Positions 4,437 to 21,562 of a DNA stretch of 64,000 nucleotides are shown one piece after another. The notes beneath the pieces are model-generated. The model was not told where the DNA came from. It saw nothing but the letters and a program-made list of their open reading frames with translations, and did not search any database. Within the stretch, counting starts at the first letter, position 1. Each line of letters starts with the position of its first letter. The position numbers and the translations under genes were made by a program. The stretch spans positions 896,001 to 960,000 of the forward strand of contig CAWFGE010000012.1 of NCBI GenBank assembly GCA_963815195.1, given 5' to 3'. This DNA is from an uncultured Planctomycetaceae bacterium (GTDB lineage: Bacteria; Planctomycetota; Planctomycetia; Planctomycetales; Planctomycetaceae).

Positions 4437-4539
4437 TCACTCACGATTGCTTGAGTTGATTTCAGTCGTTCCAAATTACCGAAAAAGGGCCGAAGGTCCG
4501 GCTCTATGTCAGCCCAGGGCGCAGCCCTGGGAACGCAAA

Positions 4540-5102
4540 CGGCGGGGTGGCTGGGGCGCAATGGATTGGATCAATCAAAAAACTCGTTTCGAAAGCTGGG
4601 GCCACGGAAGATCTTTCTCTCACATCCATGGCCCCAGTATTCGCTTGCCTAATTTTATTCGTAGACGAATCTGCGCCCCAGCCACCCAACCGCAATATGT
4701 CAACCGAGCTCGATCACACAAGGCGAGCGGCGGGGTGGCTGGGGCGCAATGGATTGGATCAATCAAAAAACTCGTTTCGAAAGCTGGGGCCACGGAAGAT
4801 CTTTCTCTCACATCCATGGCCCCAGTATTCGCTTGCCTAATTTTATTCGTAGACGAATCTGCGCCCAGCCACCCAACCGCAATATGTCAACCGAGCTCGA
4901 TCACACAAGGCGAGCGGCGGGGTGGCTGGGGCGCAATGGATTGGATCAATCAAAAAACTCGTTTCGAAAGCTGGGGCCACGGAAGATCTTTCTCTCACAT
5001 CCATGGCCCCAGTATTCGCTTGCCTAATTTTATTCGTAGACGAATCTGCGCCCAGCCACCCAACCGCAATATGTCAACCGAGCTCGATCACACAAGGCGA
5101 GC
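4540..5102 (+). repeat. Tandem array of three 187/188-bp REPIN-like units
   Basis: Units start at 4541, 4729 and 4916 and are essentially identical. Each has the inverted repeat GGGTGGCTGGGGCGCA...TGCGCCC(C)AGCCACCC and an inner inverted repeat ctggggccacgga/tccatggccccag. Confidence 0.95.
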
Positions 5103-5201
5103 GGCCGGCGTCAGCTGGCTGACTACTCTCGATGGTTTCAGTTGATTTGCCTTTTTCACGATCGCTCGCATTCGTGGGAATTCTTGAAACATTCTGCGTC
5201 A

Positions 5202-10402: not shown

Positions 10403-11674
10403 CTATGCAAACAACAATTCGTAAGGATCCGCCGCGTCCGCCTGGCTCAGCGGAAGGGTTGTGAACACGCCGGGATGGCCGGGTTGGAGGGTGCCGAGTT
10501 TTGTCTCGGCTCCGAAGAGGGCCACCGCTCCGTTTCGCGTGGCCCAGGTGAGCCATTGGGCGGGCGGCGTTTGCGGGTGTTGTCTGCGGAGGAATTTGAC
10601 TTCTTCCCAAAGATTCAGATCGGGATTCGAGGCCCGGCTGTCCGTGCCCAGCGCGACCCGCACGCCCGCTTCGATAAGTTTCGGCCACGGATGATTCCGA
10701 TGCCCGAAGTAAGCGTGCGTCCGCGGGCAGTAAACCACGCTCAAGTGGGGATGCTCCGCCAGGAAGCCAATGTCTTCGTCGCTTAGATAATTTCCATGCA
10801 CAATCAGCCCGCGGTCCACGTCGGCGAGCGGGATCAGGTAATCGAGAATCCGGGTGCGGCGGGGGATGATGTTCTCCCGCCAGGCTCCGAAGGCGGAGAG
10901 CATCTCCACCAACTCCCCGCTGCCGGCGGAGAGCAGTTCCAGTTCCGCCCGCGTTTCCGCGAGGTGCATCGCCATGGGGGCTTTGTGGTCCCGGCAGAGT
11001 CTGACCAATTGACGAAACAACTCCGGATGCACGCTGTAGGGCGCATGCGGACTCAATCCGCGAATGAGCGCGGGCGCTTCGTTGGCCGAAGCTTCCTGCA
11101 AATGCTGCTTCGCGATGCCAAGTTGTTCCTCGATCCGCTCCGGCAACAACGCCAACAACTCGCGAAACACAACGACGCGAGCCGAGGGCGGGGAGTTTTT
11201 AAGAAACACCCGCGGCGACCAGCCTTCGGTGGCGATTTCGCCGACGGCCCGCGTGCCGGTGCTCACGGTTTCCGCGTAACCTTGCGAGATGATTTTCTCC
11301 ACGGACGCCGCCCGCGACCGCCGATGCGCCACGAGCGCCCGAATCCAATCCGCAAAGGATTCCGCCGTATCCAAAGGCGCGGCGAGATCGCTGAACTCCC
11401 AGTGCGTATGGGCGTTCACCAGTCCCGGTAGAATGGCGACATTCCCCAAATCCACCGCCCGTGGCTCGGCTTTGTCATGAACCGCCGAGATCACCCCATC
11501 CTCGATTTCCACCACGCCGTTTTCCACCGGCGAAGACGAAACGGGAAAAACCCACCGGGCACGATAGCGTTCGGTCGTCACATCCTGGCTCCGCGTCTGG
11601 GCCGAGATTGTTTTGAGTTTTCCAACACGGTCGTCATCGAAGGACGCGCGATGGGAACCCAATGATCGTAACAT
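10403..11674 (-). CDS. Metal-dependent amidohydrolase (nucleoside deaminase-like)
   Basis: 'PGLVNAHTH', 'SPHAPYS', 'HLAET', 'ALGTDS'; start uncertain. Confidence 0.9.
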   Translation of the reverse strand: MLRSLGSHRASFDDDRVGKLKTISAQTRSQDVTTERYRARWVFPVSSSPVENGVVEIEDGVISAVHDKAEPRAVDLGNVAILPGLVNAHTHWEFSDLAAPLDTAESFADWIRALVAHRRSRAASVEKIISQGYAETVSTGTRAVGEIATEGWSPRVFLKNSPPSARVVVFRELLALLPERIEEQLGIAKQHLQEASANEAPALIRGLSPHAPYSVHPELFRQLVRLCRDHKAPMAMHLAETRAELELLSAGSGELVEMLSAFGAWRENIIPRRTRILDYLIPLADVDRGLIVHGNYLSDEDIGFLAEHPHLSVVYCPRTHAYFGHRNHPWPKLIEAGVRVALGTDSRASNPDLNLWEEVKFLRRQHPQTPPAQWLTWATRNGAVALFGAETKLGTLQPGHPGVFTTLPLSQADAADPYELLFA

Positions 11675-11738
11675 ATCCCCAGCCTGGTCCGCGGAAAACG
11701 TTTCCCCATCCCCAGATTCCCCAAAATCCACGCGCCCC

Positions 11739-11910
11739 CGCCGGGTGCCACTGGCAGGTTGCTGCCAGTGTTTTCCTCAGATCACATTCCAGTTTGATGG
11801 GAGCTTTCGTCAGCCTACTCCGTAAAAGCACTGGCAACAAGTTGCCAGTGGCACCCGAAAGATTTCTTATTGAGAGGACAACGAATTAAACTAACAGTCC
11901 CACCCCGCCG
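11739..11910 (+). repeat. 172-bp REPIN-like element, copy 1
   Basis: Two inverted REPs (GGGTGCCACTGGCAGGTTGCTGCCAGTG / CACTGGCAACAAGTTGCCAGTGGCACCC) plus a tail ending CTAACAGTCCCACCCCGCCG; CGCCG at both ends. Confidence 0.95.
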
Positions 11911-11960
11911 TTCCAATATTTTTACCCTACGCCCTACGGTATGCCACCCCGCTGCTGCAC

Positions 11961-12584
11961 TCACATTATGACGTTGCCCAAGCTGGACAGTGCTTCTCGA
12001 AGTTCATCCTCAGCACAATTAAACTGCTTTGCGAGGGTTGGTGCATAATCAACTATCGCCGAAGTTATGTTAGGTTGATTCGGTAAGTCCGTTGCCCAAA
12101 CCGAAATCCGTCCCGGCCATTCAATCGCCTCAATCTCATTCCGCCGTTCGTGGGGATTTAGGATCGTGAAGCACGGCCATTTGGGTAGCTTGATGGAACT
12201 AATATCACAATCCATGAACCGGCAGCCATCAAGCACAGCTTCGGAAAAATCGCAGTCCGCGATGCTACCGTTCTCGCAATTGACACCATAATCTGGCCAA
12301 TGTCCGAACTCGTGTCCAACGTAATGGCCTGTGAAAGTGCAGCCACTAATTGCTGCCGCTAACCAAGAAAAATTGGCAAGCTTCTTCTTAACTTCAATTT
12401 GGCAGTCGATTATTTGTACGTTATTCACAATGTGCAGCAACCTTGCCGTGGTTCGCAGGATTAGTCGGCAGTGTCTCAGCGTAAGGTCAGAACCCAAGTA
12501 GTTGTTGTCGTTGTCTGTTAGGATAAGCTCTGTCTCTTCGAGAGTCTGGTTCTCGATGATACGACTTTCAGCATAATCTGGCAT
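11961..12584 (-). CDS. Hypothetical protein with pentapeptide-like beta repeats; candidate orphan immunity protein
   Basis: 207 aa, RBS GGAGAAGGA, lower GC, 'DCDFSEAVLDGCRFMDCD', 'PKWPCFTIL'. The immunity role is inference. Confidence 0.75.
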   Translation of the reverse strand: MPDYAESRIIENQTLEETELILTDNDNNYLGSDLTLRHCRLILRTTARLLHIVNNVQIIDCQIEVKKKLANFSWLAAAISGCTFTGHYVGHEFGHWPDYGVNCENGSIADCDFSEAVLDGCRFMDCDISSIKLPKWPCFTILNPHERRNEIEAIEWPGRISVWATDLPNQPNITSAIVDYAPTLAKQFNCAEDELREALSSLGNVIM

Positions 12585-12692
12585 GTCCTTCTCCCGAGTG
12601 TGATGTTAAATCAAAATTCGATCATGCGGAACAAAACATCGGCCATCCGTCGGGCATGAAGATCCAAGTTGAACCGAGTAAGTGTAGTAAGT

Positions 12693-13337
12693 GTAGGGCC
12701 GGCTGTGCCGGCCTTTTGCCTTTTGTTTACTCGCCGGCGGTTTCTTCAATGTCGGAGAAATCCAGCACGCCGTATTTCTCCCAACAGGCCCAATGGTCGG
12801 GATATACACCCTTCTTAACCCAGCGGTGAAAACTGGACCACGGCCATTCGCGGGGGCATCGCACGTAACCGTGTTTCACCGGATTGTAATTTATGTAATC
12901 GAAATGCCGCTCGAAATCGTCCTCCGTCTCCAACGTATGCTCCCAAAACTTTGGTTGCCACACCCCGCGTCGGCCGTCCCGTTTGCGGCCCTCGGTTTGT
13001 CGTTGTTCGCAGCCTCCGAGCGCCAGCCAGTTTTTTGTAAATTCCTTCTTGATCCAACCCCACCGTGTGGAGTAGGCCTTATCGCCGGGCGGCAGCGACC
13101 AGATGGCGTGCAGATGGTCGTGAAGCAGCACAAGTGCGTTGATCGTGAACGGCCATTTCATCCGGCAGCGGCGAATGATGCTGCCGAGCATGGGCCGCGC
13201 CGGGATGCCCGTCAAAAAGCGTGCCCGACGGTCGGAGACGACCGTGAAAAAGAATGAGCCTCCGGGAACATGGGCGCGTCGCCAGTTGGGCATGATCGTC
13301 GTTCTCCTCATCGAAAGGCCGGCACAGCCGGCCCTAC
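12693..13337. mobile_element. RAYT gene bracketed by perfectly inverted 21-bp GTAG-type REPs (REPtron-like)
   Basis: GTAGGGCCGGCTGTGCCGGCC at 12693-12713 and its reverse complement at 13317-13337. Confidence 0.9.
12727..13293 (-). CDS. rayT: REP-associated tyrosine transposase (RAYT/TnpA-REP, Y1 HUH family)
   Basis: MPNWRR..PGGSFFFTVV, HUH 'DHLH', 'VWQPKFWEH', catalytic 'DYINYNPVKHG', 'WPWSSF'. Confidence 0.95.
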   Translation of the reverse strand: MPNWRRAHVPGGSFFFTVVSDRRARFLTGIPARPMLGSIIRRCRMKWPFTINALVLLHDHLHAIWSLPPGDKAYSTRWGWIKKEFTKNWLALGGCEQRQTEGRKRDGRRGVWQPKFWEHTLETEDDFERHFDYINYNPVKHGYVRCPREWPWSSFHRWVKKGVYPDHWACWEKYGVLDFSDIEETAGE

Positions 13338-13391
13338 GTGGCTAACAGTGCCACCCCGCCGCGGCGGGCCCTACTTCCCTTAGACCGGTTT

Positions 13392-13940
13392 CTACGTGAG
13401 TGGAGCGATTGGCGGAAATGGGTGAAATCCCGGTTCGCTGAATCTGATGTTATCCTCTTTTTGGAGCAGATCTAGGACAGTCGGGGATGCGATGACAACC
13501 GTAGTGTCGTTATCAATGTACGAAGCGAAAAAGCGATCCTCGATTCCTTCGTTTTGCAGCTCGGAGTTCAACGCTCCTAATGTCCGATTCGTGGTCGTGA
13601 GCCAAAAACTGGCGTGACTATCCTCGGGCATTCGCCAAAGCATGAAGCGATCCCCATTTATGAACAGGTCAGCGCGTTTGCCTTGTACGAACGGCATTTC
13701 CAATTGGTGGATCGTTAATCCTAATTGCTCCAATGATGGCTCTACGGAGCGAATGAAGCCGATCGGCCCCCTCTCGGCTATATCTTCTGCGTCTAAGTCG
13801 AAAACGCGGTTCGTACCCTGTTGCAGTATGTAGTTCGACTCGACACATTGCTGGCGCACTTTGTCGGCCATCTCGGTTGAGCAGAGATTGTAAAATCCCA
13901 GGTAATCCAAGGCGTCGACAAGTTTTTGTATATCAGTCAT
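13392..13940 (-). CDS. Hypothetical acidic protein, lower GC; candidate orphan immunity protein
   Basis: 182-aa ORF starting 6 nt after the stop of a short upstream stub. Confidence 0.7.
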   Translation of the reverse strand: MTDIQKLVDALDYLGFYNLCSTEMADKVRQQCVESNYILQQGTNRVFDLDAEDIAERGPIGFIRSVEPSLEQLGLTIHQLEMPFVQGKRADLFINGDRFMLWRMPEDSHASFWLTTTNRTLGALNSELQNEGIEDRFFASYIDNDTTVVIASPTVLDLLQKEDNIRFSEPGFHPFPPIAPLT

Positions 13941-13984
13941 TTTGTATTACGCAATCGCAGTGCCATTTGGAACGAAATTGAAGG

Positions 13985-14156
13985 CGCCGGGTGCCACTGG
14001 CAGCTTGCTGCCAGTGTTTTCCTCAGATCACATTCCAGTTTGATGGGAGCTTTCGTCAGCCTACTCCGTAAAAGCACTGGCAACAAGTTGCCAGTGGCAC
14101 CCGAAAGATTTCTTATTGAGAGGACAACGAATTAAACTAACAGTGCCACCCCGCCG
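13985..14156 (+). repeat. 172-bp REPIN-like element, copy 2
   Basis: Near-identical to copy 1, same orientation. Confidence 0.95.
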
Positions 14157-14265
14157 CGACCCAAGGTTGCAAGCAACCTGCGCCACCCTGCGAATAGGTT
14201 AAATCGGAACATGGCATTTTCCAAAATTAAGGTTGCAGCCGTGGGGATACATGCTGGTTTCGGGA

Positions 14266-14883
14266 TCACCGTTTAACCACCAACTTGTCAGCCGATTCAG
14301 AGACCGGCCCGCCGGGATACCAAATCTTGGATTTGACGTGGTTCATCTTGTAAATCCGAGTTAGCGGCGTATGCCATTCTTCGGCGACTTCAGGGGTGTC
14401 GATCTCCCCAATTGTCGGCGACCGGAGCAATTCAGCGACGGGCTGTTCCGGCAGAACGGCCTTGCCGTCGAATCGGTTCTCGATCACCGAAGCGGCTTTC
14501 CGGAGAGCGATTCGCTCCCTCAATTTGGATCGTTGCGCGACCCCTTCAGGCGATGCCGTGTAATCGCCACTTTGGACGATGTTCAAGAAATTCACGCAAA
14601 GGGCAACCGACAAAACAACCATGCCCCAACGGACCACGCGAAACAACTTCTCCGAGCGGCAGAACAACCCCACGATCAGGATGGCTAGCGTGGGGATGAT
14701 CCATTCCGCCTTTGGTGTCCCATTGGCGTTCAGAACCAATGTGCAAAGCACGCCGACGACGATCATTGGGACAATGGCATTGATGATCTCGCCGGCTCTC
14801 CGCCCCTTCCCGAATCGGAAGGCGACGAACAGCATCGCCAACACCGATGATCCCGCCAACAAGATGAGATGCAACAAAATCAT
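14266..14883 (-). CDS. Hypothetical membrane protein (about 4 TM helices plus a soluble C-terminal domain)
   Basis: 205 aa, RBS GGAGG, hydrophobic N-terminal half. Confidence 0.75.
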   Translation of the reverse strand: MILLHLILLAGSSVLAMLFVAFRFGKGRRAGEIINAIVPMIVVGVLCTLVLNANGTPKAEWIIPTLAILIVGLFCRSEKLFRVVRWGMVVLSVALCVNFLNIVQSGDYTASPEGVAQRSKLRERIALRKAASVIENRFDGKAVLPEQPVAELLRSPTIGEIDTPEVAEEWHTPLTRIYKMNHVKSKIWYPGGPVSESADKLVVKR

Positions 14884-15026
14884 GGTATCCGGAACCTCCG
14901 ATCATCGGTAAACGCCGAAACCCCAGGTCGTGCCCGGAATCCCGATCACAAATCTGACTGCTCCATAACAATCGGCCCCGTCGAGCCGGGCTTCCACTGC
15001 GTCGGCGATCTCTTTGGAGAAGCAAC

Positions 15027-15198
15027 CGCCGGGTGCCACTGGCAGCTTGCTGCCAGTGTTTTCCTCAGATCACATTCCAGTTTGATGGGAGCTTTCGTCA
15101 GCCTACTCCGTAAAAGCACTGGCAACAAGTTGCCAGTGGCACCCGAAAGATTTCTTATTGAGAGGACAACGAATTAAACTAACAGTGCCACCCCGCCG
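15027..15198 (+). repeat. 172-bp REPIN-like element, copy 3
   Basis: Appears identical to copy 2. Confidence 0.95.
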
Positions 15199-15281
15199 CC
15201 ACCGCGGATTTCACCCCGTCCATCCAGCCCGAACTCCCTGGAAACAAGCGAGTTCCCAGCGAAAACGGGGAGCGGCCCCGG

Positions 15282-16042
15282 TTACGTTTCCGTCCCGGAA
15301 TCGCCTTCGCTTTCCACGCCGGGCGGCTCGATCCGGCCGCGGCGCTGCAACCAGCGGGCCATCAGCCAGCAACCGATCGCCCACACGGTCCCCGCGGTCC
15401 AGCCGGCGAGCACGTCCGTCGGCCAGTGCACGCCGAGATACACCCGGCTGACGCCGACCGCGATCGTCAAGAAAATCCCAACCGCCACCAGATAAACCTT
15501 CACCCGCCGCGACTTGTGCGCCGGGCCAAAACGGCCGCGAGCGTAAGGTAAGTGATCGCCGACATCATGGAATGCCCGCTGGGAAAACTGCTTGTGTAAA
15601 CATAGGAGCCGTGGGGCACGAGATCGGGCCGGGGCCGGCTGAAGCCGTACTTCAATATCGACCCCACGAGAATCCCGCCTCCGACCGTAACCGCCAGAAA
15701 CAGCGCCATATGCCCTTTTCGCTCCAAAAGCAGATAACCCACGAGCGCGGCCGTGAGTAGCGTGAGCACCGTCATTCCGCCCAGGGCCGTGAAATCCCGG
15801 CCCATTTCCTCGACCCACCGCGGCCCGATGGGGTCTTTCCGGTCGTGCGGATTTCGGAGCGCCAACAGGATCCTTTCATCCACCGTTTGCGTGTCCTTCT
15901 CGGAGACTTCGTCGGCGAGCGCCGCGAACCCCCACAGCCCGGCCGCGATCACCGCCAGCCCCAACAGCAAGGCCAATTCCTCGCGGAGCAGCCCCCGAAA
16001 AAACGGCTTCCACACCGCGATTCGCTCGCGAATCCATTGCAT
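15282..16042 (-). CDS. PAP2-family membrane phosphatase, frameshift near 15525
   Basis: K..FSRPRP and SFPSGHS in one frame; SRVYLGVHWPTDV in the next. Confidence 0.9.
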
Positions 16043-21100: not shown

Positions 21101-21272
21101 CGCCGGGTGCCACTGGCAGCTTGCTGCCAGTGTTTTCCTCAGATCACATTCCATTCTGATGGAAAGTTACGCCAGCCTACTCCGTGAAAGCACTGGCAAC
21201 AAGTTGCCAGTGGCACCCGAAAGGCTTCTTATTGAGAGTACAACGAATTAAACTCACAGTGCCACCCCGCCG
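21101..21272 (+). repeat. 172-bp REPIN-like element, copy 4 (diverged)
   Basis: Same length, orientation and CGCCG ends as copies 1-3; several substitutions, mostly in the spacers. Confidence 0.95.
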
Positions 21273-21347
21273 CGAATTGGAATTCAACCAGATCTCGGCT
21301 AATTCCGCCTCGGCAGAGGGCGTCCACACGACCGTTCGCCGCGTCAT
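21273..21347 (-). pseudogene. Truncated RelE/ParE-like toxin N terminus
   Basis: ATG overlaps the upstream stop (ATGA); MTRRTVVWTPSAEAELAEIWLNSNS then runs into the 172-bp element. Confidence 0.7.
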
Positions 21348-21562
21348 AGGGCTTCCGAGTTCGCCAGGCGTTCCAGGACTTCCGCGGTCGTCCGTCCGCC
21401 TTTCTCGGTCATCGATCGGCGTTTGGCTTCCGCGATCTCGGCTTCGGAGAACGGCTGTGTGAAGCAGCCGATCCGATTGCCCTGCTCGTCAACGACTTCC
21501 AGCGGTTCGAAGGATTCCGCCAATTGCCTGGCTTGTTCCTCGGTGACGACGATTCTTACCAT
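21344..21562 (-). CDS. Small putative type II antitoxin
   Basis: 72 aa, RBS GGAAGG, C-terminal 'GRTTAEVLERL', coupled to a toxin-like start. Confidence 0.7.
   Translation of the reverse strand: MVRIVVTEEQARQLAESFEPLEVVDEQGNRIGCFTQPFSEAEIAEAKRRSMTEKGGRTTAEVLERLANSEAL

Follow-up and report, generated by a model that had tools for sequence, protein, structure and literature searches.

How unrelated small genes come to stand in a row between copies of one repeat, with no integron integrase beside them, is the question raised by a locus in the window examined here, namely a stretch of 64,000 nucleotides from an uncultured Planctomycetaceae bacterium. Between a PAP2 gene, which is frameshifted, and an amidohydrolase gene, the minus strand carries the same 20-mer at 15198, 14156 and 13361 (exact) and at 11910 (one mismatch). 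Four units with these starts, three of them continuing as a 172-bp element, had been described in an earlier note on this DNA, and that description is borne out; the repeats and the co-oriented low-GC genes of the array go far beyond chance. The unit at 13361 holds the gene for a REP-associated tyrosine transposase (RAYT, or TnpA-REP; here RAYT-1), where REP denotes a repetitive extragenic palindrome, and the 172-bp element is a REPIN, i.e., an inverted doublet of REPs.

On balance, and with some hesitation, we regard the array as a REP nest that was built, without an integron integrase, by RAYT-driven transduction of REPINs plus their flanks, with accretion. In such a process a RAYT would make two cuts in single-stranded DNA, one at a fixed dinucleotide next to the REP end and one at a similar dinucleotide farther off. 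The REPIN would thereby take a ragged piece of adjoining DNA with it, and with each recurrence another REPIN-plus-gene unit would be added head to tail. The 172-bp element would be moved at CG by a second RAYT family (RAYT-2), and GTAG-type elements at AG/CT by RAYT-1. Units might travel as single-stranded circles or by rolling-circle copying, and might re-enter at a resident REPIN through the action of a RAYT or RecA. REPINs would land first beside foreign genes, such as toxin-immunity loci and integron cassettes, and then carry these off, while selection would retain the units with useful genes, for example immunity genes.

The genome holding the window (G000; 8.9 Mb in 25 contigs, with the array on a contig of 1.13 Mb) was compared with three congeners (G001 to G003). 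Labels such as C11 and C15 denote contigs of G000, and all array coordinates are window positions on the minus strand. The literature on RAYTs and REPINs was drawn on in excerpt and includes PMC5581495, PMC3733652, 10.1101/2021.07.10.451892, 10.1101/2024.07.17.603846 and Corneloup et al. 2021 (PMC8266576); statements on published systems below apply to such excerpts.

Joins at REP ends

At the 37 exact genomic sites of REP-B, AG occupies positions -6/-5 of the GTAG foot in 34, with variable bases on either side, and of 43 REP-C ends, 36 have CG at -7/-6 relative to the GTGG foot; the genome background is 4.6% for AG and 11% for CG. When flanks having an intact twin elsewhere in the genome were compared, with no junction position assumed, identity to the twin passed through the dinucleotide and halted before the foot at 8/9 B, 7/8 G, 6/7 C and 4/6 J ends, counts that are small and include some twins that are themselves repeats, in part of each other. 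A and E ends were more scattered in this test. On the opposite strand AG reads CT, which is the known cut site of TnpA-REP: the E. coli enzyme cuts between C and T, also more than 400 nt away (PMC3333891), and the same site is given in PMC8266576, where the guide pairing of GTGG gave CC or CA. CT for GTAG REPs is thus a known code, and a CG rule for GTGG-type REPs is not met in the published accounts compared, as excerpted. Cleavage and strand transfer by RAYTs may underlie these genomic join footprints. The excerpted literature treats as open questions the way in which REPINs move in cells and the use of RAYTs, and G000 holds very young copies whose joins are readable against intact twins, offering an in vivo cut rule together with concrete substrates.

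The 172-bp element is extragenic and multi-copy and forms, on folding, a long inverted doublet of REPs (z -4.5), the features by which a REPIN is recognized. Full-length copies at ≥90% identity number seven in the genome (three in the array and four elsewhere), and CG begins and ends every one of them. The 20-mer is the left end of a dispersed family of REPIN variants in a genome crowded with many REP families: it occurs in G000 at 18 sites with ≤1 mismatch and at 28 with ≤3, its 12-base core occurs 48 times with C before it in 47, and another REP family also starts with this core. The GTTAG at its end varies among copies (TCAG, TGAG, TCGG). The special cassette junction that the earlier note had seen in the 20-mer dissolves into this family, and its candidacy as attI, attC or a dedicated junction was rejected given the dispersed sites, the variable end and the lack of attC. 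Rfam gave no match; the 172-bp element had no match in 200 other genomes of the class (E 1e-8), and viral contigs contained no copy of a 19-base pattern taken from the 20-mer.

The REPs also suggest which enzyme would act on the element. RAYT-2, which is 24.5% identical to RAYT-1 and has an intact copy at C11:44484, is flanked at C11, C13 and C15 by the CACTGG-type REPs of the 172-bp element and would therefore be its driver. The REPs of RAYT-1 (REP-B, with the GTAG foot) differ from those of the element. The RAYT unit begins at the AG ending the 20-mer, where the other copies continue as the element, and unit 3 is most simply read as a truncated REPIN with a REPtron, the REP-flanked RAYT gene, joined in. 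The RAYT of the array is a passenger, a later insertion of another REP family: the REP-RAYT-REP unit stands at unrelated sites in relatives (two copies, 97% identical, in G001; also in G003), and the 5' half of the REPtron, 99% identical, lies on C20. An array centred on the inner RAYT or run by it, as had been proposed, is not supported by these joins and REPs. REPIN-B is 99% identical between L181:4032-4178 and G001:C25:187113-187259, with genes common to the two species at 80-92%, which suggests a recent exchange of this REPIN between them.

Cargo beside REPs

Of the 16 sites viewed, several show a REPIN and its flank repeated in tandem, with CG or AG at the unit ends, and in G001 a REP lies together with two genes in a repeat of 1.28 kb. 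Host duplications of 202, 229, 84 and 264 bp were seen at four of eight loci that had been picked for nearby twins, and one of 66 bp at C15:388k, with single-copy genes between the copies; in these islands one copy of the duplication ends at the CG or CT of a REP. Also, L028 of G001 has two REPINs, each heading an atypical gene, within a 45-bp duplication that ends at CG. Since insertion beside a resident cargo should either duplicate the cargo too or leave it outside, the cargo of the duplicated islands most likely arrived together with the REPIN or later than it. At one orthologous site, furthermore, G000 and G001 are 92% identical over 1,648 bp (a host gene, RAYT-2 and a REP) and split exactly after the outer CG of the REP, beyond which stand unrelated atypical genes.

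The link of REPs with atypical genes extends over the genome, as judged from gene calls and an "atypical" score of an in-house script, in which some spurious open reading frames (ORFs) were called and RAYT genes were counted. An atypical neighbour was present in 26/37 gaps with REP-J, 19/24 with REP-B, 19/28 with REP-C and 21/30 with REP-G, as against 923/3,853 control gaps, while the abundant F and K families were depleted (31/213 and 12/91 gaps, respectively). Small genes near the REP families in question were atypical in 40/152 cases compared with 222/3,715, and near the two abundant families in 10/309. The tie between 172-bp copies and low-GC orphan genes expected in the earlier note holds insofar as REP families adjoin atypical genes, and it fails for those copies that have no orphan gene.

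A serious rival, which we judge possible yet unlikely, reverses the order of events: a foreign polyimmunity islet would have come first, REPINs and a mobile REPtron would have hopped locally into its dispensable intergenic DNA, and one-sided deletions would have left the toxin stub described below. Several findings that such a colonization accommodates weigh at the same time against transduction. There is no flanking duplication around this array; solo 172-bp copies without an orphan gene stand at window 21272 and at C16:107572; and REP ends cut into resident genes (RAYT-1 at C20:247091, RAYT-2 at C15:626096 and a gene at window 21272), so that the toxin stub may have arisen by deletion. In favour of colonization, part of L027 in G001, the inner cassettes of an island described below, is an ordinary HINT-repeat toxin-immunity array with no REPs between its cassettes. 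Other points tell against transduction in their own right: no empty site of the array was found in G001 to G003, which are not syntenic here; for genes 1-3, a donor site beside a REPIN was likewise not found; the duplicated islands have just one join at a REP outer end; CG ends are not predicted by the published GTGG-to-CC guide rule; only 25/53 REP-A gaps have an atypical neighbour; and ordinary genes surround the majority of 30 RAYT loci from other genera, as judged by eye from ORF lists. To these come the limits, given above, of the twin counts, of the picked loci and of the gene calls. Colonization, however, leaves the single-copy cargo within REP-bounded host duplications unexplained and fits poorly with the cargo switch exactly at CG in the orthologous site. 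A general survival bias is excluded as well, since atypical genes are scarce beside the two REP families of greatest abundance.

Transduction with accretion is therefore the reading that we retain, in a form narrower than first proposed. The earlier idea of gene capture by HUH/REP chemistry keeps the RAYT-type joins, the atypical neighbours and the REP-bounded duplications at other loci; it loses the inner RAYT as the agent, and the array itself has no empty site. Nor is an ordered cassette system supported, given the ragged gene fragments and the copies without an orphan gene. The interval between the PAP2 and amidohydrolase genes, where relatives might have held an empty site or other cassettes, yielded neither: both genes have other neighbours in G001 to G003, and the congeners are rearranged here. 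Low-depth Logan contigs of X1 and X2 (X1 being possibly the source sample) contained no empty-site join, and no RNA data set was among the sequencing runs listed. The proposal that the outer flanks were once a single hairpin was rejected, with 403 of 600 control joins doing as well. RAYTs are common in the class, with matches above cut-off, often more than one, in 124 of 201 genomes; most of the RAYT loci viewed in other genera adjoin ordinary genes, and the array is accordingly not a conserved enzyme-plus-cassette locus.

That the layout is an artefact of collapsed or misjoined repeats is hardly credible. The PAP2 frameshift hints at base errors, and no listed piece of a Logan contig spans the stretch; against this, the contig is 1.13 Mb long, the repeats are just 172 bp, and other loci as well as G001 show this layout too. 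The PAP2 gene itself (window 15282-16042, minus strand) is split near 15500, its G001 ortholog being one frame of 256 aa; the frameshift is either a base error or a genuine lesion.

Immunity genes invite a further alternative, improbable in our view, in which a RAYT runs a dedicated, host-serving acquisition system that collects immunity genes at fixed sites, as rAID-1 or an integron would. Gene 3 of the array is a predicted immunity gene (see below), and pieces of Imm22, SMI1, SUKH, EndoU and HINT adjoin REPs; some sites are variable in both species (L171/L031, L172/L030 and L026); and G001 carries at L027:4957-13522 a RAYT-headed toxin-immunity island of 8.5 kb with HINT-domain toxin pieces, Imm26 and Imm50, which matches a 139-bp gap in G000 holding another REP type. 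An immunity bias near REPs is thereby suggested, but Pfam toxin/immunity matches among atypical small genes (5/36 near REPs vs 1/40 in a random draw from 185 controls) give an excess that is not significant (p 0.095), which counts against transduction as well. There is also no fixed layout with the enzyme at the head, the RAYT here being a later insertion; the cargo near REPs includes pieces of insertion sequences (ISs), ankyrin repeats and broken host genes; and the promoter signal is not above chance.

More broadly, several RAYT-REPIN pairs with their own cut codes (CT or CG) might constitute a genus-wide, integrase-free system that extracts immunity genes from toxin loci and from integron cassettes and accumulates them in stacks at REPIN nests, a proposal that we put forward as doubtful. 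If it were true, such acquisition would supply the benefit to the host, long sought, for which genomes retain their RAYTs.

Genes of the array

The features of the array and the fourth full copy of the 172-bp element in the window are collected in Table 1.

Table 1. Features of the array on the minus strand, in reading order, followed by the fourth copy of the 172-bp REPIN
Feature	Position	Strand	Remarks
172-bp REPIN, copy 1	15027..15198	-	degenerate GTGG-type REP start (= 20-mer), spacer, inverted REP pair 15145-15113 / 15062-15030; CG at both ends
Possible 3' stub of another gene	14902..15026	-	40 codons, then stop; tail resembles one before the ankyrin gene at C15:249590 (weak, E 0.008)
Gene 1	14266..14883	-	205 aa; hydrophobic N-terminal half
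Single REP hairpin, third family (REP-H)	14157..14192	-	itself begins CG-N4-GTGG
172-bp REPIN, copy 2	13985..14156	-	100% identical to copy 1
Gene 2	13392..13940	-	182 aa; near-ORFan
Truncated 172-bp REPIN	13342..13361	-	left 20 bases; last two bases AG (13343-13342) common to the start of the RAYT unit
REPtron	12693..13343	-	AG-N4-GTAG REP-B (13337-13314), RAYT gene, inverted REP-B (12716-12693); recurs as a unit elsewhere
RAYT-1 (TnpA-REP)	12727..13311	-	DHLH, WQ and YINYNP motifs; likely start ATG at 13293
Toxin stub	12612..12679	-	last 22 codons of a polymorphic-toxin C-terminal domain
Gene 3	11961..12584	-	207 aa; pentapeptide-like
REP-like scraps	11911..11958	-	GTGG-type start, GTAGGG words
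172-bp REPIN, copy 3	11739..11910	-	2 differences (98.8%); closes the array
172-bp REPIN, fourth full copy in the window	21101..21272	-	93%; no orphan gene behind

Genes 1, 2 and 3 have GC contents of 55.5, 49.7 and 47.6%, which place them at the 7th, 1.2th and 0.7th percentile, respectively, of 5,606 called genes (median 61%). One small, co-oriented, low-GC orphan gene in each of three units had been the earlier description; the positions, strand and GC stand, and gene 3, with 57 relatives besides itself in a protein search, many of them in myxobacteria, is no ORFan.

The product of gene 1 is, from its sequence, likely a membrane protein. Its family is small and patchy (8 of 400 other genomes of the phylum), one distant relative being an attC-bounded integron cassette (L195), and its Atlas matches are below 0.9. 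For gene 2, G000 has one paralog at 25% identity and DUF6630 is a weak lead only; a protein database search returned only the query itself, there was no match in 400 other genomes of the phylum, the AlphaFold model was unusable (pLDDT 37), and the Atlas match lay below the recognition threshold.

Gene 3 is of a different kind. The same protein domain precedes its relatives in 109 of the 122 loci with enough upstream DNA, and five such upstream ORFs, when scanned, had the scaffolds of SitA5 (three), Rhs (one) and PAAR (one). Since polymorphic toxins and their immunity genes are arranged in this way, gene 3 is predicted to encode an immunity protein of polymorphic toxins borne on SitA5, Rhs or PAAR. 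Of the toxin domain, the array retains no more than the 22-codon stub, whose similarity to its closest donor type (75%) begins at ACT, a few bases past the REP-B end. In L181:2240-3136 (C20:124240-125139 of G000), REPIN-B is followed by a possible toxin tail and a low-GC gene of 192 aa, possibly a second unit of toxin stub plus immunity gene; the tail resembles that of an AHH-type nuclease toxin, though no profile matched it.

RAYT-1 scores 163.8 bits against NF047646 (cut-off 80). With DHLH and YINYNP, and with the HUH and Y---NP motifs of class 2 present, it resembles subclass 2.2 / group 2, for which DHLH / YIHYNP are listed (PMC6006769, Table 1). The arms of its REPtron (12693-12716 / 13314-13337) are perfect inverted repeats of 24 nt.

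Elsewhere in the window, at 4532-5108, REPIN-E and its flank stand in three tandem copies with CG at the ends, an instance of the amplification of a REPIN together with its flank. At 21101-21562 (minus strand), an antitoxin-like gene of 72 aa is followed by a gene of which about 20 codons border the REPIN copy; this stub resembles the start of a ParE/RelE protein, though no profile matched it.

Relation to known systems

The closest known relatives of the array are the REPtron, the bacterial interspersed mosaic element (BIME) and the REPIN with TnpA-REP, with which it shares an HUH Y1 enzyme, REP doublets, CT joins and tandem amplification. The idea of transduction is itself known: Ton-Hoang et al. 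2012 (PMC3333891) proposed excision of circles, rolling-circle amplification and sequestering of flanking genes or fragments and likened the process to IS91, ISCR and Helitrons, and Nunvar et al. 2010 (PMC2817692) described rayt 3' ends captured between REPs. The array departs from those excerpts in its apparent scale, in carrying foreign genes, in the CG code and in a REPtron that is mobile. Its cargo consists of unrelated foreign genes and not just of local neighbours; G000, moreover, has several RAYT families, many REP types, a second join code (CG) and host duplications of 66-264 bp. The published accounts have REPtrons that do not move as a unit and RAYTs that are mostly single-copy and vertically inherited, in contrast to the REP-flanked RAYT here, which is duplicated and stands at different sites. 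Also, unlike a typical REPIN, the 172-bp element does not share its REP with the adjacent RAYT-1. No published report of RAYT/REPIN arrays of foreign immunity genes was found in a search that mostly excluded subscription literature.

Units of IS91/ISCR, Helitrons and IS26 resemble those of the array in that one element and a ragged flank move together and form arrays in direct orientation, the comparison with IS26 being based on its translocatable-unit mechanism. The units here differ from ISCR, Helitrons and IS26 in being non-autonomous 172-bp REPINs that would be driven in trans by a Y1 RAYT rather than by an internal Y2 or DDE transposase. An element with a variable flank ending at an enzyme-specific site has left footprints at other loci, while this array has neither empty site nor donor. 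If transduction is true, RAYTs would join ISCR and Helitrons as HUH gene-capture enzymes and would provide an integrase-free route to arrays of orphan immunity genes, and may help to explain the heavy gene shuffling in the genus. At a DNA identity of 76-94%, G000 and G001 nevertheless differ in gene order, which breaks up into blocks of some 1-6 kb; several of the breaks, uncounted against chance, fall at REP nests.

With rAID-1 of Bacteroidales (10.1101/471110, in excerpt) the array shares low-GC orphan genes that lie in one orientation, one or more of them predicted to confer immunity, and repeats that separate the genes. It differs in lacking a 5' XerD-like recombinase (there is no tyrosine recombinase match within the window) and in having dispersed REPINs as its repeats, and its immunity function is a prediction from gene context, with an excess that is not significant.

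Integrons and clusters of attC sites lacking an integrase (CALINs), finally, also have one gene per repeat in the same orientation, and the gene pool overlaps through the family of gene 1. A decayed cassette array later overrun by REPINs could be imagined, since the genome has integrase pieces with attC arrays, the distant relative of gene 1 is a cassette and the 20-mer ends in GTTAG; we nonetheless consider this origin very improbable. A home-made attC scan, which recovers the control sites of L195 and those behind the IntI pieces of C21 and C18, found none in 11600-15400 on either strand; no intI lies near the array, TIGR02249 matching over its cut-off on C25 and next best to the pieces on C21 and C18; the unit ends are not gene-precise; GTTAG varies among the copies of the 20-mer; and a toxin stub precedes gene 3. 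The earlier claim of no integron basis thus holds within that scan, and the array belongs neither to the integrons nor to rAID-1.

The integron integrase of G000 lies in pieces on three contigs (C25:20804-21541, C21:244862-248000 and C18:170171-171000), two C-terminal pieces being followed by attC-type cassettes. The genome also has a repeat of about 37-40 bases that ends in GATTGAAAC, is present in about 49 copies and resembles a CRISPR repeat.

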